Part shown: in pieces, positions 29,150 to 63,529 of the stretch
Layout of the letters: each line of letters begins with the position of its first letter
Numbering within the stretch: the first letter of the stretch is position 1
DNA from: an uncultured bacterium
GTDB taxonomy: Bacteria; Babelota; Babeliae; Babelales; Babelaceae
NCBI GenBank assembly: GCA_963713855.1
Contig: OY970209.1
Location: 576,001-640,000 of the forward strand
DNA: 64,000 bases
Direction of reading: 5' to 3'
The notes under the pieces: generated by a model
Database searches by the model: none
What the model was told of the DNA's origin: nothing
Seen by the model: the letters and a program-made list of their open reading frames with translations, nothing else
Position numbers and translations under genes: made by a program

Positions 29150-30689
<1,540 letters not shown>

Positions 30690-30806
30690 CGAGGGAGTAA
30701 AAGATCTACACTTTGGTGTGTAATTTATATAATTTGAATGAGCAAGATCGTAGACATCCTATAATTAATGAGTACAATAAATATTAGTAGGCAAAAGCTT
30801 CTGAGC

Positions 30807-30883
30807 GGGCCTATAGCTCAGGTGGTTAGAGCACCCCGCTGATAACGGGGAGGTCAGTCGTTCAAGTCGACTTAGGCCCACCA
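30807..30883 (+). tRNA. tRNA-Ile(GAT)
   Basis: GGGCCTA...CT-GAT-AA...TAGGCCC-A-CCA in the 16S-23S spacer. Confidence 0.95.
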
Positions 30884-30906
30884 AAAAGGCCTGACTTCCT
30901 TCAAAA

Positions 30907-30982
30907 GGGGGTGTAGCTCAGTTGGTAGAGCGTCCGCTTTGCAAGCGGAAGGTCATCGGTTCGAATCCGATCATCTCCACCA
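30907..30982 (+). tRNA. tRNA-Ala(TGC)
   Basis: GGGGGTG...TT-TGC-AA...CATCTCC-A-CCA in the 16S-23S spacer. Confidence 0.95.
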
Positions 30983-31701
30983 ACAAAACATACCAAATAA
31001 GGTATGTTTTGTGACGCCCAGTTAAGATGTCTTTTGTAATACTAAGTATATTTGGTAAAACTCTTTGTGTTTTAGTATAAAAATTATCGTGTTCTTTGAA
31101 ATGTATAGTGTAATATGTCCTAAGTGACAAATTACTGAGTATCTCAAAAGTTTTGAAAATTTAGTGGTTAATTGAAAAGGGCTTCTGGTGGATGCCTTGG
31201 TACCAAGAGACGATGAAGGAGGCGGTAGACTGCCATAAGCTTCGGGGAGCTGTCAAGCAAGCATTGATCCGAAGATGTCCGAATGAGGAAACTCACTACG
31301 GCAAAACCGTAGTACTCTTATCTGAATCTATAGGGTAGGAGGGTGAACGGCATGAACTGAAACATCTAAGTAGTGCTAGGAAAAGAAAACAAAGTGATTC
31401 CCTGTGTAGTGGTGAGCGAAAGGGGAACAGCCTAAACGTATATTATGTGATAACCTGTGAGTGTTATAGTATATGGGTAGCGGGATTATAATATCTAAAA
31501 GTCACAGCTTTTAGCATAGAGTTACTGAGTTTAGTTGAAATGTTCTGGAATGGACGGCCATAGAAGGTGACAGCCCTGTAAGCGAAAAATCAGTAATATA
31601 TGAGTTTTAATCCCAAGTACTGCAGAGCACGTGGAATTCTGTAGGAATCAGCCCGGACCATCGGGTAAGGCTAAATACTTCTTGGTGACCGATAGTGAAC
31701 G

Positions 31702-31732
<31 letters not shown>

Positions 31733-32305
31733 GGGAGGGGAGTGAAATAGAATCTGAAACCAGTTGTCTACAATCGGTGGAAGCGCAGTTTAAGAACGCG
31801 CAACCACGTACCTTTTGCATAATGAGCCAACGAGTTATCGTATGTTGCAAGGTTAAGCTTAGAAAGAGTGGAGCCGCAGCGAAAGCGAGTCCGAATAGGG
31901 CGTTTAGTAGCATGCGATAGACCCGAAACCCAGCGAGCTACCCATGTCCAGGATGAAGTCTCAGTTAAATGAGATGGAGGTCCGAACCGGTGTAGGTTGA
32001 AGACTGCTCGGATGAGATGTGGGTCGGAGTGAAAGGCTAATCAAGCTGGGAGATAGCTGGTTCTTCCCGAAATATATTGAGGTATAGCCTCGTCGAATTT
32101 ATTATGGCGGTAAAGCACAGTTGAAGTTTTGGGGGAGCAATCTTACCGGACTTTTACTAACTCTGAATGCTATAGTTTTTGAAGACGGGAGTCGGACTGT
32201 GGGGGATAAGCCTCATAGTCGAGAGGGAAACAGCCCAGACCATCAGCTAAGGTCCCAAAATATTTGTTAAGTGTGAAAAGAAGTAGCAGTACATAGACAG
32301 CCAGG

Positions 32306-32362
<57 letters not shown>

Positions 32363-33160
32363 TTTGCTGCACTGAAATACAAACGGGGCTCAAACAAATT
32401 ACCGAAGCTATGGCTTGTATACATTACTTGTAATGTAGTACAGGGGTAGGGAAGCGTTCTCTAGGAGATACAAGCTCGACTGGAAAGACGAGTGCCGGCC
32501 TAGAGAAGTGAATATGTTGGTATAAGTAACGATAAATAGGTGAAATTCCTATTCGCCGTAAGTCTAAGGTTTCCGTGAGACAGGTTTATCCGCTCAGGGT
32601 TAGTCGATGCCTAAGCCGAGGCCAATTGGAGTAGGCGATGGACAACAGGTTAATATTCCTGTACCACTTTTAGGCGTTTGAGCGAAGGGGGGACGCAGTA
32701 GGGTAAGCTGACTTGGCTTATGGATTGCCAAGTTAAGCACGTAGGAAGATTTGATAGGCAAATCCGTCAAATTAATTCTGAGATGTAACGAGTATGTTAA
32801 GTCCTTGTGGCTTGATGTATTCAGCTGATCCCACACTGACTAGAAAAGCCTCTAGCAAGCCATAAGAGTGATCGTACCGCAAACCGACACAGGTAGACGG
32901 GCTGAAAATGCTCAGGCGTTGAGATAACTACCATTAAGGAACTCGGCAACTTGGCCTCGTAACTTCGGGATAAGAGGTGCCTATACTGTGATTTTGCACA
33001 CGCAAGAAAAGCAGTGATAGGTTTCAACAAAGAGGCCCAAGCGACTGTTTATCAAAAACACAGGGCTCTGCAAACTCGTAAGAGGAAGTATAGAGTCTGA
33101 CGCCTGCCCAGTGCCGGAAGGTTAATAGGAGATGTCAGCCGTAAGGCGAAGCGTTGAATT

Positions 33161-33450
<290 letters not shown>

Positions 33451-33484
33451 AACGGTCCTAAGGTAGCGAAGTCCCTTGTCGGGT

Positions 33485-34196
33485 AAGAGAATCTTGCCCC
33501 TTTATCTCGCGAGGGATAATGAAACACCAGCTCATATCGGGGAAGCCCTCCTGAACTTGTTCAAAGGGTAATCCCGAGGGAAGTCTCTTAAGTAATTAAG
33601 ATGACCCCGTAACGACTGATCCGAAAGGAGAGGCACGCGTAAAAGTGTGCAACACGCTGGTTACTTGCCTAAGAAAGGGGGCTTATGGAGATATATAAAG
33701 TACTTGATCCATGGTTTGTGACAGGATTGACTGATGGAGAAGGTTGTTTTTCAATCTCGTTTACGTTGCGAAAGCGCGTAAAGATTGGTATAGAAACGCG
33801 TCCTTCTTTTTCAATATCCTTAAATCGTCGAGATCTTGATTTAATTAAAGCAGTGCATGCTTACTTTAAATGTGGAAGTATTCGTTATAGTAAGAATGAT
33901 CGAACGTACAAGTTTGAAGTTCGTTCAATTCAAGATCTTATAAAACGTATAATACCGCACTATAAGAAGTATCCGTTGCAATCGAGTAAAGCAAGTGATT
34001 TTGCACGGTTTGAGGAGATATGCGCGAAAGTGCATGCCAATCTTCATTTAAGCAGAGATAATCTGCAACAAATCATTGAAAGTGCCTGTCTTATGAATCC
34101 TTCTGGAAAACGGAAGTATACAAAAGACGATCTCCTAAAAGTACTCTGCAAGTAAAAGGTATAGTCTACTTCTTGTAGAAATATAAGATAAAAGTG
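33485..34196 (+). mobile_element. Group I intron at 23S position 1951 (712 nt) carrying a homing endonuclease
   Basis: Interrupts GTCGGGT|AAGTTCCGAC after U, ends in G. P1 gggtaaga/tcttgccc; P7 elements aacgactg and ggtatagtc flank the ORF. Confidence 0.92.
33685..34155 (+). CDS. Single-motif LAGLIDADG homing endonuclease
   Basis: WFVTGLTDGEGCFSIS motif, F.CG.I, IIPH..KYPL.S.K..DF; 156 aa within the L1951 intron. Confidence 0.93.
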   Translation: MEIYKVLDPWFVTGLTDGEGCFSISFTLRKRVKIGIETRPSFSISLNRRDLDLIKAVHAYFKCGSIRYSKNDRTYKFEVRSIQDLIKRIIPHYKKYPLQSSKASDFARFEEICAKVHANLHLSRDNLQQIIESACLMNPSGKRKYTKDDLLKVLCK

Positions 34197-34228
<32 letters not shown>

Positions 34229-34669
34229 TGGGCGCTGTCTTGATGGTAGACTCAGTGAATTTGTAGTACCGGTGAAAATGCCGGTTACCCGCGACTGGAC
34301 GGAAAGACCCCGTGCACCTTTACTGCAACTTGACATTGATTTTCGGATAGCTCTGTGTAGGATAGGCGGGAGACTTTGAAGTTAGGGCGCTAGCTCTAAT
34401 GGAGTCAACCTTGAAATACCGCTCTTATCTGTTTGAAAATCTAACTTTGACCCGTAATCCGGGCAGAGGACCGTGTCTGGTGGGCAGTTTGACTGGGGTG
34501 GTCGCCTCCCAAAATGTAACGGAGGCGTTCAAAGGTTCCCTCAAGGCGAATAGAAATCGCCGGTTGAGTGTAAACGCATAAGGGAGCTTAACTGCGAGAC
34601 ACACAGGTCGAGCAGATGCGAAAGCAGGAGTTAGTGATCCAGTGGTTCTGAATGGAAGGGCCATTGCTA

Positions 34670-34702
<33 letters not shown>

Positions 34703-34979
34703 TATCTCCTCTGAGAGTCCTTATCGACGAGGAGGATTGGCACCTCGATGTCGGATCATCGCATCCTGGGGCTGGAGAAGGTCCCAAGGGTCTGGCTGTT
34801 CGCCAGTTAAAGCGGTACGTGATCTGGGTTCAGAACGTCGTAAGACAGTTCGGTCCTTATCCGTCGTGGGCGTAGGGTATTTGAGAGGGGTTGTTCCTAG
34901 TACGAGAGGACCGGAATGAGTGAGCCTCTAGTGTTCCAGTTGTTTACCAAAAGCAGGCTGGGTAGCTAAGCTCATAAGA

Positions 34980-35010
<31 letters not shown>

Positions 35011-35235
35011 TTGCCTCAAGATAAGATACCCCCGTTTTCGAGCAATCGAAATCATAAGATCCCTTGAAGACTACAAGGTTGATAGGCTGGGTGTGTAAGC
35101 ACAGTAATGTGTTCAGCTAACCAGTACTAATAGATCGAACGTTTTAATCACTTAAATATTTTTTAAAGATACTCTACATCTTAGTTATTAGGACATGCAC
35201 TATATATTTCGAGAACACGACAAGTTTGAAAAATT

Positions 35236-35351
35236 CTCTGGTGCGTATAGCTGTAAGGAAACACCCGTTCCCATTTCGAATACGGCAGTTAAGCTTACAG
35301 CGCCGATGATACTTGTCTGGTAACGGACTGGAAAAGCAGGTAGTGCCAGGG
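35236..35351 (+). rRNA. rrf: 5S rRNA
   Basis: ctctggtg...acacccgttcccatttcgaatacggcagttaag...gccaggg. Confidence 0.92.
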
Positions 35352-55486: not shown

Positions 55487-55814
55487 AGTATATACCAGAT
55501 CGCGGTGATATAGTATGGCTTGAATTTGGGCCTCAAAAGGGTAGAGAAATACAAAAAACGGATCTGCTTTGATTGTTTCACCAAAGAATTACAACTCAAA
55601 AGTTGGTCTAGCGTTGTGCATGCCTATTAGGAGCAAAATCAAAGGCTATCCTTTTAAGGTAGTTATAAATGAAGGGTCTGTTAGAGGAGCGATATTAAGT
55701 GATCAAATACGTTCATTGAACTGGTTATCAAGAAAAGCAGTTTTTATTGTCCAATGTGATAATGACTTACTTCATGTGGCTCTAGTAAAGCTCAAGCTTT
55801 TAATTGATCAATAA
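55480..55814 (+). pseudogene. Frameshifted MazF toxin
   Basis: MVKYIPDRGDIVWLEFGPQKGREIQKT then a frameshift near 55560 to SALIVSPKNYN...PI.SKIKGYPF.V...ILSDQIRSLNW..RKA. Confidence 0.8.
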
Positions 55815-56266: not shown

Positions 56267-57607
56267 ATGGTTGAGTGTATAGTAATTGACCAATCTCCTG
56301 CATTACGTGGGTCGGTGGATGTTGCAGGTGCCAAGAACGCTGTGCTTGTTATTATGGCATCGCTCATCTTGACCTCAGGAAAATCTCGTCTTTTTAATGT
56401 ACCCTGGTCCGCAGATGTGGAGCACATGGCTTTGCTGCTTCGGACTTTGGGAGCGGACGTCGAATTTAACCGTGTTAACCAATCGTTAGAGATTGATACT
56501 GCGCACCTTAATCGCTACACAATCAATCCAGAAAGCATGCGCAAGATGCGTGCTTCTATTCTTCTCATGGGACCCCTTCTTGCTCGTTTTGGCTTAGCAG
56601 AAGTGGCCATACCCGGAGGCTGTGTTATAGGTCAACGTCCAATAGATTTTCACCTTAAAAGTTTTGTGCGCATGGGAGTTGAACTAGAACTGCAGGGCGA
56701 ATTTATCAAAGCGACTGCAAGTCAATTAAAAGCCACACGCATCGTGCTTGAATACCCAAGCGTTGGTTGTACCGAAAATGTTCTTATGGCAGCGGCTTTA
56801 ACACCCGGATTGACGACCGTAGTTAACGCAGCCTTAGAGCCCGAAGTGCTTGACCTCATTGCAGCGCTTCAGAAAATGGGAGCATCGATAGAGATAAAAG
56901 CTCCTGCAACAATTGAAGTCGAAGGCATGGATGAGCTACGACCAATCGAGCATACCATTATGCCTGATCGGTTAGAGGCTGGGTCGCTTCTTGTAGCAGC
57001 TGCTATGACGGGCGGGACCGTTACGGTACGACATGTTTCCGCTTTAACTCTTGAGGTATTTTTAGAAAAATTATCTGAAATGGGGCATACCATTTCAATG
57101 GGGCCTGCGGGCAAGGATATTACACTCAAAGCAACAGATTCGCCTAAAGCGGTGTCTTTCAGAACCATGCCCTATCCGGGCTTTCCCACTGATCTTCAAG
57201 CGCCAATGCTTGCGGCACAGTGTGTTGCTGAAGGTGTAAGTTACATTCAAGAAACAGTGTATGAAAATCGCCTACTCCATACGCGTGAGCTTCAAAAAAT
57301 GGGGGCGCATATTACGTTGGATGGCCAAACGGCTACAATCAAAGGGGTTGAAATGCTTTACGGCAGTCGCGTTATAGCTACAGATATACGAGCATCTGCA
57401 GCTTTGATTGTTGCTGGCCTTAGAGCCGAGGGTCAGACTATTATGACGGGTATCCACCACTTAAAGCGCGGCTACCAAGACATTGAACGCAAGCTTTCAT
57501 ACTTGGGAGCTCGACTTGGGTACGCTTCATATGAAAATGTTCTCCATGACGCAAAGCCCGTTTTTTCAACTGAAAATAGGCCACAAACCGCTGATGCTAG
57601 TCTATAA
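56267..57607 (+). CDS. murA: UDP-N-acetylglucosamine 1-carboxyvinyltransferase
   Basis: GAKNA, MRAS...GPLLAR, PGGC.IG.RP.D.H, SVG.TEN, PYPGFPTDLQ, TDIRASA. Confidence 0.97.
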   Translation: MVECIVIDQSPALRGSVDVAGAKNAVLVIMASLILTSGKSRLFNVPWSADVEHMALLLRTLGADVEFNRVNQSLEIDTAHLNRYTINPESMRKMRASILLMGPLLARFGLAEVAIPGGCVIGQRPIDFHLKSFVRMGVELELQGEFIKATASQLKATRIVLEYPSVGCTENVLMAAALTPGLTTVVNAALEPEVLDLIAALQKMGASIEIKAPATIEVEGMDELRPIEHTIMPDRLEAGSLLVAAAMTGGTVTVRHVSALTLEVFLEKLSEMGHTISMGPAGKDITLKATDSPKAVSFRTMPYPGFPTDLQAPMLAAQCVAEGVSYIQETVYENRLLHTRELQKMGAHITLDGQTATIKGVEMLYGSRVIATDIRASAALIVAGLRAEGQTIMTGIHHLKRGYQDIERKLSYLGARLGYASYENVLHDAKPVFSTENRPQTADASL

Positions 57608-58439
57608 AGCTTCCAATAAGGTCAGTAAGTTCGCGAGTGATCGTTGCTTGTCGTAATTTGTTATAGCTCAACTTCAGATTAGCAATGATCTCTTCAGCGT
57701 TTCTGGTCGCGCTATCCATAGAAAGAAAACGCGCGGACGACTCGGCTAAAAGAGAATCCATAAGCAATGATTCGATACGTGCCTTGATAGCAAGAACTCC
57801 GAGAGTGTTTAGAGTATCTTGATATGATTGTTCTTGTACCAATGATACTGCTTGACGAGGCAGTGAGACGCTTGAGGCTTGAAAAATATCTTTAGTGAAT
57901 GTTATGCGCTCATACGTTTGCGTAAAGAAGGTTTTAGGGCGACTTGTGTAAAGAGTAACCGAATCGTAAAGGGGTGATACAATATATTTAGCAAGCTCAT
58001 CAGTTATGTTCGTAATCTCGTGCGACCCAAAGACATCGAAGGAAAAAACGGGCACGATGCTCTGATAGAGCAATGCCTCTTTCATTTGCTTTCCTATAAC
58101 CAAAATATCGTAATCGATACTTTTTGATGGCTTATGCCCTTTAAAATAGGCCACCAGATTAACGTTAAAATTGCCGCACAGCCCTTTTTGGGACCCGACG
58201 ATGACGACCAGCTCTTTTCGGGGATGATTTACTTCCTCTGTTTGGTGGCTATGGGCAGTGCTTTTAGCAAGGAGGGTGTGTAAAAGCCTTTCAACAGTAT
58301 CGGTATAGAGCACGAGCGAAGATTTTTCTTGCTGCAAGCGATTATGGGATGCCATTGCAATAAGGCGCATCGCATTTGTTGTTTTTTGAGTAGTCTCAGT
58401 CGCTAACAGCCGCTGGCGCAACTGAGTGAGTAAAGACAT
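57597..58439 (-). CDS. atpG: ATP synthase F1 gamma subunit
   Basis: K.T.AM..IA, KGLCG.FN, AE..ARF.SMDSAT.NA, YNKLRQA.IT.EL. Confidence 0.93.
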   Translation of the reverse strand: MSLLTQLRQRLLATETTQKTTNAMRLIAMASHNRLQQEKSSLVLYTDTVERLLHTLLAKSTAHSHQTEEVNHPRKELVVIVGSQKGLCGNFNVNLVAYFKGHKPSKSIDYDILVIGKQMKEALLYQSIVPVFSFDVFGSHEITNITDELAKYIVSPLYDSVTLYTSRPKTFFTQTYERITFTKDIFQASSVSLPRQAVSLVQEQSYQDTLNTLGVLAIKARIESLLMDSLLAESSARFLSMDSATRNAEEIIANLKLSYNKLRQATITRELTDLIGSFID

Positions 58440-59624: not shown

Positions 59625-60667
59625 ATGCAAAGGCAAATCTATGATGCGCTATTTGTCACTGTTATGGCTGTTCGTTTTTCGAATCTCATATATGGTGAAG
59701 GCTTTGGGCCTTACACGATGATACCTGTTTTTAACGGATTTACGCCTATTTATTTGCTTAATAAAGGTGATACAGTTCGTTGTCATCACTATGACACAAT
59801 AAGGATAGCTAATGTTCGCATTCACTCTGTAACTGAGTCTGTAATAATAAAGTTTAGTAACGAGGAGCAAGTGTGGGTTGCAGCAGACCAACGCATCTAT
59901 GTACCTGTTAGATACAAACATCGTTTTGTTTATGAACTTTATCCTTGTTATGACGATGATAGCTGGCGGACTTATTTTTTTGGCTTGAGTTCTGCACGGT
60001 TACTTCGATCGAGTTTCTATTTCATAAGCCACTTCCTTTTTACAGTTTAGAAATTGCGGGGTTAGACCAAAAATTCTGTTTGATAGATCAAGTGGAGGTG
60101 CATAACTTTCCCTGGACTGCAGGCGTAGAGATTACATTTAGCCATGACGGCTTATTTGATTTTGCAAGTTATGCATTTGCTAATTTCAACGTATATGGAG
60201 TTGTGATTTTTGCTGGGGTTGCTGTTGGAGCTGCTGCAAAATATGCCTATGATAAAACCAAACAGAAATGGGAAAATACGGGTTTTAGAGTTAAAGTAGA
60301 TGCAGCAGACAAAAAGCCCGAGGAGGATTGTGATCCGGCATTTCCTCATACATGCTCATACATGGATGCACCGTACCACCATCATCAGAGTCGGGGAAGT
60401 GCTGAAGGCGGCAAAAGTAGAGCGCCTAAGAATGGTCTAGCTGCTTTGCGCAATTCAATCCCAATTGGTGGAAGTAGTTATGCTCGTATTGGTGTTAGTG
60501 AAGGCGAAATAGTTAAACTTCCCTACAGTAATAACTGTATTTTTCATGGATTTGTAGAGTGGGATGATTTGGATAAATCTGCCCGAAGTATGCTTGAGAA
60601 AGCTGGCCTAGTGAACAAAAAAGGCAGGATTTTATATCATGTTACCAAAATTAGAATTTATTTATAA
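59625..60667 (+). CDS. Hint-domain polymorphic toxin split by a -1 frameshift near 59975-59981
   Basis: Frame A: EGF...T.I....G..PI..L.KGD.V (Hint N). Frame B is open from 59963: VTSI...FYSLEI...V.VHN (Hint C), hydrophobic segment, then toxin-like YH...KS.AP.NG..AL.NS...FHG...W..L. Confidence 0.7.
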
Positions 60668-61250
60668 TAAGGAAAAAGGTGCGATACAACTTTACGCGTC
60701 TAGCAAAAGTTTTTCAAGAATACTTTTGTTTTTAGATGTACTGAATGTCATCGAAGATAAGTATCTTTTTTTAGATAAATTGCTAAACAATCAGTCGAGC
60801 GAGCTTTCTCCGTCAATTAGCAACATTGGATATATAGAGAATGAATATTCTTATACTGAAATTTTGCCACACGGTATTGAATCTGAAGATTTCTTAAAAT
60901 TTGTTTTTTGCTCTACGCCAAGTTATCCGCAACCCAACCTCACTACATGGATTTATAAACAAGCTAATCGCTATTACTTAGAGATAACTCCTAATTATCC
61001 CTACGAATATAGAGATCCTAAGCCAGATGAGAGGTACATATCGTTTGAAGACTTTATGAAGGATTATAAGCCCTTCTATAAAGAAACTATAACAAGACAG
61101 GATCTTCAAGAGTTAAGAAATTTATTTGCCAAAGCGACTATAGAAACCTATAAAAACATGTATTACGACGCAATGCATGCTTTAAGTGAAACTGAAGCCT
61201 GTAGGCACATGGATGTGGATGATCAAGATAAAAGGCAGAAACTTATGTAA
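60639..61250 (+). CDS. Candidate immunity protein
   Basis: Overlaps the toxin 3' end, same strand, no signal peptide; TWIY....LEITP.YP motif. Confidence 0.55.
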   Translation: MLPKLEFIYNKEKGAIQLYASSKSFSRILLFLDVLNVIEDKYLFLDKLLNNQSSELSPSISNIGYIENEYSYTEILPHGIESEDFLKFVFCSTPSYPQPNLTTWIYKQANRYYLEITPNYPYEYRDPKPDERYISFEDFMKDYKPFYKETITRQDLQELRNLFAKATIETYKNMYYDAMHALSETEACRHMDVDDQDKRQKLM

Positions 61251-61276: not shown

Positions 61277-61501
61277 TCATTTTTTTTGTCCTGCTTTGTA
61301 TTCAGCCATCGCACATCTGAGCGAAGTGCCGAATTGTCGAACACAATATTCGTCACCGCTACCACAATAGCCGGCATCGCTACAACAACGGCCAGGATCG
61401 CAATCACGATTGCATTTGCATCTGCCTGAAGGATCTTCTTTAGAAAAACTTGCCGAGGGTAGGGCAAGGATAAAAATCGCTAGTATTAATGACGTTTTCA
61501 C
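61277..61501 (-). CDS. Secreted hevein-like (CBM18-like) cysteine-rich peptide, 74 aa
   Basis: GTG start with GAGG SD; signal; CKCNRDCDPGRCCSDAGYCGSGDEYC. Confidence 0.8.
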   Translation of the reverse strand: MKTSLILAIFILALPSASFSKEDPSGRCKCNRDCDPGRCCSDAGYCGSGDEYCVRQFGTSLRCAMAEYKAGQKK

Positions 61502-61629
61502 AGAGTACCTCAATTCTATTTTTGCTAAGACTTCATCTTGAAAAAGTGCCGACTTGTCAACCAAAATGTTAATCCGCAATAGCGCGATTACTGCAACAGT
61601 CGGGACGTGAGCTGATTATGAGTGCTTTT

Positions 61630-61806
61630 TTAGCGCCCTGGTAACAACTCACAGTATGCACGGCCTGCTCCACAAAATCCAAATTGGCTGCAACAGCGGC
61701 CTGCGTCACAGTCATTATCAGATTTACATGAGTGCTGCGCATTTTCCGCAAGACAAACAGATGATGCGCCCATGAGTAGTAAGACTACTATATATACTTT
61801 TTTCAT
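61630..61806 (-). CDS. Secreted hevein-like (CBM18-like) cysteine-rich peptide, 58 aa (below ORF-track cutoff)
   Basis: Manual translation MKKVYIVVLLLMGASSVCLAENAQHSCKSDNDCDAGRCCSQFGFCGAGRAYCELLPGR*; AGAAGGGA SD. Confidence 0.85.
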   Translation of the reverse strand: MKKVYIVVLLLMGASSVCLAENAQHSCKSDNDCDAGRCCSQFGFCGAGRAYCELLPGR

Positions 61807-62026
61807 GATATCCCTTCTTGTTGACGTAAGGAATTAAGACCAATGTCAAAATTATTAGTAATTATATATTACAATTATTTAATTATTAATTGCAAGAGTC
61901 TATCATAGATACTCGTGCGGGGGGAAAGCTCTTTAGCCATTTTATGGATTTTTTGAAAACTTCTTATTGACTAAATTATTCAGTTTGTTATTTTGAATAC
62001 AATAATTACCCCATAGTTTGAGTCAT

Positions 62027-63529
62027 ATGTTATATCGTTTAGTTTGTGTATGTTTATTATTCACGTGCTCTTGTGGTAAAGCGCTTGAAAAGCTAGATAA
62101 TCGGTTAGAGCGACTTGATTTTTCCGACAAAGTTATTGCGGTGCGTGATATTGCCGTGGATGCAGCACACTTTCTTGCTGATCCTGAGGCTGCGCGTAGT
62201 GCCTTACACTATTATAACTTCTTGCGTGAAAAAGCCCATGTGCCGATTGCTTCTCTTAACAATGAGATTGATACTGATTGGCTTACTCATTTTGAGAGGA
62301 AGTTTACCATTTTAGCTTCGCTAGAATATTCTTTAAAGAATGACTGTAAGAAGGCTTTGCTTATGTTGCCAAGCCAGTCCCAAGAAGCGCTTTTAGAGGA
62401 AGCCGCAAAAGACCTAGATATTAAATCTCATCTTGTGCCCGTTGGTTTGACTTATGAGGGCGGAAAGGCTTTTCCTCGTTATGGCACCTTTACCAAGATA
62501 GGTATCGGGCTAGATCCGGATTTGCAGGTACGTACATCAATTTTGTACCATGAACTCGGCCACGTTTTTTATAAGGATTCAGAAATAGGTCTTACTCAAG
62601 AAGAAATTGAAAAATACGTCCAAACGGACCACTTTAAAAAATTTAACGCAAAAGTTGAGCGCTTAGTACAAAAAGGTGCCTCTCTTCTTTCAAGCCTACA
62701 AGGCACTCAGTTAGGAACTAGGCTCTCTAAAATGTGTAATGAAGAAGCAATGGGGCTTATTAAGACCCAAGGATTTTTATGGGTTGGTTCCAATGATCTT
62801 GAGCTTGAGGCTTACCAAAAGCAAGAACCTGAGGAATATGCTTCTACCCTCTACGAAAGATTTACAGAACAACGTGCAGATCTTTTTAGCTATGAAAAAC
62901 TATATGAAAATGATAAGCTTGCTGCACTTTTTGCCCAATTTCGTGAATTTTCAGCCGACACCAATAGCATTGTGCAAAGAGGAAAGATAGTTCATCCATC
63001 TAATCTAGAACGCATTCTCTACGGTCTTGGTTATTTAGCAGACAAAGGCGAAGATGTTGCAAAATCGGTCACAGAATGGGAAAGTCAGGGTGAGTGCGTC
63101 GATGCTGAACAATTGACATGCAAGGGACACTGTGCACACGTTATGAAGCACGCTGGGACCCGCGATGCGCTTTCGGTCTATTATGCATTAAGCAATGAAG
63201 ACTACCTGGCTTGGAAAAAGGCGAATAAAAAGCACCAAAATGTAGTCTCGGTTATCGATGATCTAAAAAAATCTTTAAAATCACTGGAAAAGCCGAACGC
63301 TTGTATAAAGCCACTCTACATGTATAACCTCATTCGCGATTTGACTGATGAAAAAAGAGAGTACTTTCCCGAAGCTATTGATCAAGAGTGGATTGAAAAG
63401 GCCAAAAATAGCGTTTTCATCAGAAACTGGCTCTATGTGGGGCTTTGTATTGGTAGTACCGCGGCTCTGCTAATGCTTTTAGCTATAGACAGCCTAAATA
63501 GAGCACTACCGAAGCGTCCAGTGGTCTAA
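62027..63529 (+). CDS. Putative zinc metallopeptidase (M48-like), exported, C-terminal TM
   Basis: ILYHELGH (HExxH), EQRADLF, HPSNLERI; N-terminal signal with Cys; C-terminal hydrophobic helix. Confidence 0.7.
   Translation: MLYRLVCVCLLFTCSCGKALEKLDNRLERLDFSDKVIAVRDIAVDAAHFLADPEAARSALHYYNFLREKAHVPIASLNNEIDTDWLTHFERKFTILASLEYSLKNDCKKALLMLPSQSQEALLEEAAKDLDIKSHLVPVGLTYEGGKAFPRYGTFTKIGIGLDPDLQVRTSILYHELGHVFYKDSEIGLTQEEIEKYVQTDHFKKFNAKVERLVQKGASLLSSLQGTQLGTRLSKMCNEEAMGLIKTQGFLWVGSNDLELEAYQKQEPEEYASTLYERFTEQRADLFSYEKLYENDKLAALFAQFREFSADTNSIVQRGKIVHPSNLERILYGLGYLADKGEDVAKSVTEWESQGECVDAEQLTCKGHCAHVMKHAGTRDALSVYYALSNEDYLAWKKANKKHQNVVSVIDDLKKSLKSLEKPNACIKPLYMYNLIRDLTDEKREYFPEAIDQEWIEKAKNSVFIRNWLYVGLCIGSTAALLMLLAIDSLNRALPKRPVV

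Follow-up and report, generated by a model that had tools for sequence, protein, structure and literature searches.

Hevein domains (CBM18) have been treated as modules of plants and fungi, in which the disulfides connect C1-C4, C2-C5 and C3-C6 (PMC5374622, excerpt) and the binding site comprises one serine and three aromatic residues (PMC7662308, excerpt). Hevein lectins bind, to varying extents, chito-oligomers, high-mannose N-glycans and LacNAc (PMC5485984, excerpt). The cyanobacterial lectin scytovirin has a hevein-like sequence and binds high-mannose glycans, not chitin (PMC8004682, excerpt), and a database includes knottin sequences from bacteria (PMC5753296, excerpt). The effectors of the phylum Dependentiae have hardly been studied; for one cultured parasite of this group, the food vacuole is the route of entry, and vesicles appear to be shed (PMC6561590, excerpt). 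Among the papers listed by our literature searches, none dealt with hevein peptides of bacteria or Dependentiae. Here, a host-dependent bacterium of this phylum was found to keep three stand-alone hevein genes, alongside some 35 further genes for small, cysteine-rich exported proteins.

The window, i.e. the whole stretch of 64,000 nucleotides that was analysed, belongs to a genome (G000) consisting of a single contig of 1,521,901 bases. The named homologues of the MurA encoded in the window are labelled Babeliaceae, Babeliales or Dependentiae, which supports the Dependentiae host assumed in an earlier note on this DNA. That note had described two neighbouring minus-strand ORFs with Shine-Dalgarno sequences and signal-like starts, and both are present as claimed:

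61630 to 61806, minus strand: ORF1, 58 amino acids, ATG start, one six-cysteine hevein-type domain with the full site of serine and three aromatics
61811 to 61816, minus strand: Shine-Dalgarno-like AAGGGA of ORF1, read from the sequence, 4 nt upstream of the ATG
61651 to 61728, minus strand: hevein-type domain of ORF1, C27-x5-C33-x4-C38C39-x5-C45-x6-C52
61277 to 61501, minus strand: ORF2, 74 amino acids, GTG start, predicted signal peptide, hevein-type domain without the first aromatic
61508 to 61511, minus strand: Shine-Dalgarno-like GAGG of ORF2, read from the sequence, 6 nt upstream of the GTG
61343 to 61420, minus strand: hevein-type domain of ORF2, 25.7 bits on PF00187, below the cut-off

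The domain carried by ORF1 is CKSDNDCDAGRCCSQFGFCGAGRAYC and that carried by ORF2 is CKCNRDCDPGRCCSDAGYCGSGDEYC. Both N-termini show a basic residue followed by a hydrophobic stretch, the predicted signal peptide of ORF1 having 20 amino acids; signal peptides were called by eye together with a crude hydrophobicity filter, not with a dedicated predictor. Two additional cysteines, overlooked before, bring the mature part of ORF2 to eight. The codon-level hevein pattern gave two matches in the window versus none in 100 shuffles. A six-frame scan of the whole genome led to the identification of a third gene outside the window, ORF3 (G000:C1:875207-875503), which lies 238 kb away and encodes 98 amino acids with a predicted signal peptide and two hevein domains. 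As a result, a total of three genes and four six-cysteine hevein domains were recorded in the source genome, and the four-domain profile matched this genome exactly four times. All four domains have the spacing C-xn-C-x4-CC-x5-C-x6-C, and at pairwise identities of 10-16 of 26 residues every cysteine is kept.

On the Pfam family Chitin_bind_1 (PF00187), proposed earlier as a check, ORF1 scored 27.9 bits (E 2.7e-6), exceeding the gathering cut-off of 27.8 by a margin of 0.1 bit, and the two-domain ORF3 passed with 32.1 bits, but ORF2 failed with 25.7 bits (E 1.4e-5). Among PDB sequences, ORF1 was matched best by wheat-germ agglutinin (E 7.6e-6) and variants of Ac-AMP2; scytovirin and squash trypsin inhibitors ranked close behind these heveins. 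The Atlas matches listed were all PF00187 clusters (three of three, scores 0.81-0.86), which we take as a lead only. The tail motif of the ORFs, G-x-G-x-x-Y-C, is that of eukaryote-like heveins, in which the two glycines and the tyrosine occur in 99%, 76% and 67% of 135 domains, respectively. For the structure prediction, also proposed earlier, the alignment behind the AlphaFold2 model of ORF1 contained 21 hevein-like sequences, and because it consisted of heveins the model leans towards that fold; on this hevein-rich alignment the core pLDDT was 86-89. With this model the first nine Foldseek rows were heveins (E 0.095-0.45), but none reached E 0.001, and VIA-align gave Z 2.0-2.5 for three heveins and equally for the squash knottin EETI-II. 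The model thus fits a hevein and is compatible with other knots as well. Taken together, Pfam, the PDB sequence matches, the fold ranking and the Atlas clusters support the hevein/CBM18 assignment, and the signal-like starts followed by hevein domains without cargo support a stand-alone, predictedly secreted form.

The binding-site positions are complete in ORF1 (S40, F42, F44 and Y51) and in the second domain of ORF3 (S81, F83, F85 and Y92). In ORF2 (S41, A43, Y45 and Y52) the first aromatic is replaced by alanine, and in the first domain of ORF3 an Asp stands in place of the third, so that an aromatic is lost in two of the four domains. The earlier readings, that the 58-residue peptide keeps the serine and all three aromatics and that the second copy has lost the first aromatic, are both borne out.

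Plant six-cysteine heveins (Ac-AMP2, 1mmc; SmAMP, 2kus and 2n1s; quinoa cQ2, 5zv6) resemble the ORFs in having a signal peptide and a cargo-free domain, have the cysteine spacing in common with them, share the serine and three aromatics with ORF1 and the second domain of ORF3, and were the top fold matches. ORF1 came close to the Ac-AMP2 core in sequence and fold searches, as the earlier note had recognised, although its first loop has five residues versus four in the Ac-AMP2 alignment. Plant hevein-like precursors carry a C-terminal domain of 25-30 residues (PMC5374622, excerpt), whereas the tails of ORF1, ORF2 and ORF3 comprise 6, 21 and 5 amino acids and this domain is absent. Ac-AMP2 has a stretch rich in Arg and Lys, whereas the mature bacterial peptides are near-neutral, with net charges of -1, +2 and -2. 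Fungal, rotifer and metagenomic CBM18 domains (P0059, P0072 from Oculimacula, P0038 from Cadophora and P0005 from Physocladia) and the viral contig L042 have a C-x5-C-x4-CC spacing identical to that of ORF1; these CBM18 domains reach 19/26 identity with ORF1 and have the same G-x-G-x-x-Y-C tail, but unlike the stand-alone ORFs they mostly occur as repeats or fusions (with deacetylase, DPBB and other domains).

Scytovirin (2jmv, PF20888) has a C-x5-C-x5-C-x5-C core in common with ORF1 (E 6.5e-4) and was the best PDB match of a mixed Dependentiae profile (E 2.9e-7), but it lacks the adjacent CC and the hevein third pair, whereas all four domains described here have the CC and the sixth cysteine; the Pfam search gave no match of ORF1-3 to PF20888. 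Inhibitor-cystine-knot peptides (EETI-II, spider and cone-snail) share the two-disulfide core and gave near-tied fold matches with ORF1, but their third cysteine pair lies elsewhere, ORF1-3 having the hevein positions.

ORF1 and ORF3 have an upstream element of 36 bp in common, at 89% identity (E 1.8e-4; next-best match in the genome E 0.7), and a pattern derived from both copies matched just these two sites:

61864 to 61898, minus strand: AT-rich, promoter-like element 5' of ORF1, with a second copy 5' of ORF3 (G000:C1:875111-875146)

Scans for promoter and terminator consensus sequences were at chance level. The common element points to duplication of the gene together with its promoter region.

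Within the phylum, the Pfam cut-off for PF00187 was passed by one of 261 genomes, the source genome alone; the other 260, sister species included, had no domain above it. Two weak PF00187 matches (G093 and G228) fell in frames of just 23 and 27 codons and were discarded. A word-indexed homologue search with ORF1 as the sole query returned just ORF1. When 185,579 species, without the source genome, were scanned for an exact motif that would miss the first domain of ORF3, 21 loci were obtained, which by reading (neighbour genes for 7 of the 21) comprised 5 genuine bacterial genes, 8 eukaryotic or vector contaminants and 8 chance frames. The genuine genes are from Biostraticola tofi, Pectobacterium polonicum, Phytopseudomonas flavescens, Paracidovorax avenae and Sorangium sp.; they are small, have one domain above the Pfam cut-off (30.5-40.8 bits), lie in low-GC islets and show a signal-peptide-like start in four of the five cases. 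Their first loop is longer, they have at least eight cysteines, and they are not close to the window peptides. Heveins in bacteria are therefore rare but not unique to this genome, given these five other species in the scan. Their loci (L092:1721-2110, L094:3764-4153, L106:3812-4168, L108:3890-4117 and L109:3962-4597) represent four Proteobacteria and one myxobacterium; a YCC motif is common to three, and two lie near MacAB-like exporter genes. The loci that probably represent contamination of public assemblies of bacteria and archaea (L099, L100, L101, L102, L104, L105, L107 and L096) include chitinases of plants, proteins of fungi and a chitinase-GFP expression vector.

On viral contigs, 77 loci matched a looser pattern and hevein-like ORFs were found on eight contigs (L042:2560-3069; L018, L020, L034, L054, L056, L076 and L081). 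The domain of L042, with C-x5-C spacing as in ORF1, is fused to a DPBB-like domain and lies among giant-virus-like genes. The single match of a profile scan of the viral contigs was off-frame and is ascribed to chance, and a fold search of the viral models gave no match at E 0.001. A metagenome profile scan yielded three loci, one of which is the G090 peptide described below (sequence identical to P0145); the other two have no cysteine-knot ORF.

The four-domain profile matched 357 proteins among 1.84 billion representatives. Among the matches listed for a broader profile (120), 52 bore organism names, comprising 36 fungi, 13 plants, 2 rotifers and 1 bacterial label, the last on a 646-bp contig. 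The term "plant-type" used earlier is not retained, since among the matches listed fungal names outnumber plant names and the nearest N-terminal match is a Dependentiae peptide (G090). A recent plant donor is unsupported by taxon labels, N-terminal scores and the tree; because the named relatives are mixed and mostly fungal, there is no reason to single out plants, and a single donor lineage cannot be named from the tree and the comparison of fungal, rotifer and metagenomic domains.

The four-domain profile also matched small secreted cysteine-rich peptides in other Dependentiae (loci were read for 14 of the 19 other genomes with matches). In the sister species G009 (93% complete) it gave no match, and entirely different genes lie there between tsaE and nusG. 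Within the same family, a second-round profile matched 12 of the 40 other genomes; its remaining matches were G090, which belongs to another family, and one spurious row (G135), which also arose with the family profile and is a 26-codon frame among ribosomal genes. The 12 family genomes (G025, G028, G023, G031, G012, G007, G018, G033, G034, G032, G029 and G030) encode secreted knottin-like peptides of 66-97 amino acids, and 11 of the 12 genes lie within about 1.5 kb of gatB:

L131, L133, L135-L143 and L145, at the centre of each locus: knottin-like peptide genes
L112:1095-1472 and 1501-1695: tandem secreted cysteine-rich ORFs of G090, the second an eight-cysteine peptide in which hevein and knottin positions are combined

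The gatB-linked peptides have no Pfam family above the cut-off, and no such gene was found beside gatB in G000, G009 or four other checked family members. They have four invariant core cysteines in common with ORF1 and mostly keep S/N-x-F-G-[YF]-C; the hevein CC and tail are absent, the third cysteine pair is placed differently, and there are N-terminal cysteine(s) and usually a CC that follows the second core cysteine. In ORF1-3 the cysteines are arranged as in heveins, not in this layout. The model of one gatB-linked peptide matched squash and spider knottins best, none at E 0.001. The G090 peptide has eight cysteines, with an N-terminal cysteine plus the hevein CC, and NDCDAGRCC is common to it and ORF1; it lacks the serine and two aromatics, so that the site can be lost in this lineage.

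Across positions -7 to +19, the G090 peptide scored 55 against ORF1 and 48 against ORF2, versus 46 and 38 for the best of the 135 eukaryote-like domains, which had been chosen because they resembled the query. A glutamate at -6 is present in three of the four source-genome domains and 7 of 12 Dependentiae peptides, versus 2% of the 135 eukaryote-like domains. A profile of the 12 family peptides, containing no G000 sequence, ranked G090 (E 8.2e-5) and ORF1 (E 1.3e-4) first outside its training set, and six eukaryote-like domains scored level with the best source-genome domain. A tree of 56 rows and 33 columns, unrooted and with unsettled bootstrap, from which G032 was left out (gap) and in which the Dependentiae tails were masked, grouped three source-genome domains with 12 Dependentiae peptides at 98/86. 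With seven upstream columns removed (26 columns) the clade dissolved, G090 remaining nearest to ORF1 and ORF2, and the AU test rejected neither grouping (p 0.49 and 0.16). Mean core identity over 19 residues gave no separation (8.8-9.6 for eukaryote-like heveins versus 8.8-9.2 for the gatB family), while the G-x-G-x-x-Y-C tail of the source-genome domains is like that of eukaryote heveins only, unlike the Dependentiae peptides. The Dependentiae search and phylogeny suggested in the earlier note thus supplied a homologue in G090, but the Dependentiae clade was lost on 26 columns. Judged from the sequences, kinship of G090 with ORF1 and ORF2 is likely and that of the gatB-linked family with ORF1-3 is suggestive; the tree being unrooted and its direction thus undefined, we favour retention of an acquired hevein as the simpler reading.

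Tentatively, and with more doubt than confidence, the Dependentiae may hold a living series between two disulfide folds, from intact heveins (G000) through an eight-cysteine intermediate (G090) to a vertically inherited, gatB-linked secreted knottin with the hevein S/N-x-F-G-[YF]-C face and a moved third disulfide. Together these would make up a bacterial family of knot effectors that bind glycans and are directed at protist hosts, with folding in G000 independent of DsbA, DsbB and VKOR, and a natural record of hevein/inhibitor-cystine-knot interconversion. If the link to the gatB family is true, it would mean a new bacterial knottin family and a natural hevein-to-knottin transition.

The function that we favour, with about even confidence, is that ORF1-3 are secreted small lectin effectors that bind GlcNAc glycans and act on the protist host; GlcNAc or chitin binding itself is predicted from the sequences. 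The domain would most likely have passed from a eukaryote into the Dependentiae, with duplication together with the upstream element in G000 and possible re-wiring in relatives. The peptides would be exported by Sec and released via the type II-like secretin cluster or in vesicles, and each domain is predicted to form a three-disulfide knot, for whose oxidation an exported thioredoxin-like protein is a candidate. Their targets would be GlcNAc-containing glycans of the host (chitin oligomers or N-glycan cores), bound as in hevein through stacking on the three aromatics and a hydrogen bond from the serine. ORF1 would be monovalent, ORF3 could act as a cross-linker, and binding by ORF2 and the first domain of ORF3 would probably be weaker or different. 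Counted for the glycan-binding function is that the genome also has cyanovirin-like exported proteins and two secretins: a tandem array of three exported proteins that resemble half-cyanovirins (CVNH) and have a hydrophobic stretch at the C-terminus (G000:C1:1409461-1410913, L161), one of them above the Pfam cut-off, and the secretins in a type II-like cluster at 253381-261441. Since the peptides are short enough for synthesis, the host glycans that Dependentiae recognise could be tested directly.

The candidate oxidoreductase is an exported thioredoxin-like protein of 401 amino acids with a WCGAC motif (G000:C1:242514-243719), located 10 kb from the two-secretin cluster. DsbA-type proteins, DsbB and VKOR were not found in G000 by searches that detected their positive controls, which raises the question of disulfide formation in a genome where neither a Dsb nor a VKOR pathway can be recognised. 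GH19 and Erv1 gave no match in searches run without a positive control. Filtering for small ORFs that combine a ribosome-binding site with a signal-like start and at least four cysteines retained 39 in G000, a few of them probably spurious, of which 31 have an even cysteine count, most have no Pfam family and three are galaxin-like. Across the whole proteome the even-cysteine bias is weak (169/331 exported-like proteins versus 183/400). GH18 chitinase was not found in G000 and is present in 11 of 41 family genomes (9 of the 12 with a gatB-type peptide versus 2 of the 29 without); because these genomes are close kin, no inference is drawn from the co-occurrence. The failure to find a chitinase and the modest charge of the three peptides speak against chitin digestion or classic antifungal action.

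It is rather unlikely that the peptides are knottin effectors acting on a host protein (protease or channel), the hevein likeness being a relic or a common scaffold. Squash trypsin inhibitors follow close behind heveins in sequence and fold searches, squash and spider knottins are the best matches of the gatB-linked peptides, binding residues are lost in two of four domains and in the G090 homologue, and inhibition of a fungal metalloprotease is known for some hevein-like peptides of plants (PMC7662308, excerpt). However, ORF1 scored 13.1 bits on Pfam Squash (PF00299, cut-off 22), and two separately placed domains, 16/26 identical, both keep the serine and three aromatics. In squash trypsin inhibitors an N-terminal cysteine precedes the reactive loop, unlike mature ORF1, which has no cysteine before C27.

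Quite unlikely, too, is a periplasmic or surface role in which the peptides would protect the GlcNAc-containing peptidoglycan of the bacterium itself against lysozymes or chitinases of the host inside the food vacuole. In a cell with two membranes, Sec export leads to the periplasm first, the genome makes peptidoglycan precursors (murA lies in the window), and GH18 was not found in G000; however, 260 other genomes of the phylum, sister species included, presumably face the same enzymes and have no domain above the Pfam cut-off. In fungi, Avr4 is described as a chitin-binding effector that shields the wall, and a similar role has been proposed for chytrid CBM18 (PMC3569864, excerpt). The chance that the peptides act as antifungals against fungal or chytrid competitors, an idea of the earlier note, is slim. 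ORF1 follows the Ac-AMP2 core, and six-cysteine plant heveins inhibit fungi (PMC5374622, excerpt), but the idea is weakened by the mature net charges, set against the Arg/Lys-rich stretch of Ac-AMP2, and a reduced, host-dependent bacterium would have little obvious contact with free fungi.

The three hevein genes have a GC3 of 0.32-0.35 versus 0.36 and codon adaptation at the 64th, 89th and 97th percentiles. That the ORFs are eukaryotic assembly contamination or silent relics has a very slight chance of being right: although 8 of the 21 loci of the all-species scan were read as eukaryotic or vector contaminants of bacterial assemblies and both hevein loci sit in variable regions, contamination is unlikely because two loci 238 kb apart on one 1.52-Mb contig carry intron-less frames with ribosome-binding sites, native codon usage and a common upstream element, all cysteines are kept despite 10-16/26 identity between copies, and a homologue exists in a second Dependentiae family (G090).

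Several other features were recorded in the window. At 59625-61250 there are three ORFs without a Pfam match, the first of them Hint-like by eye with two paralogous matches in the genome, a layout reminiscent of a fragmented polymorphic toxin with an immunity gene behind it. The stretch 62018-63529 encodes an exported M48-like protease that belongs to a set of about a dozen paralogues in this genome. A group I intron match (33146-33401) lies within the 23S rRNA gene of the operon at 29150-35351, and a PemK/MazF-like ORF at 55569-55814 spans profile positions 25-107 only. A lone ATP synthase gamma-like gene at 57597-58439 is convergent with murA, and the arrangement in G009 is identical.
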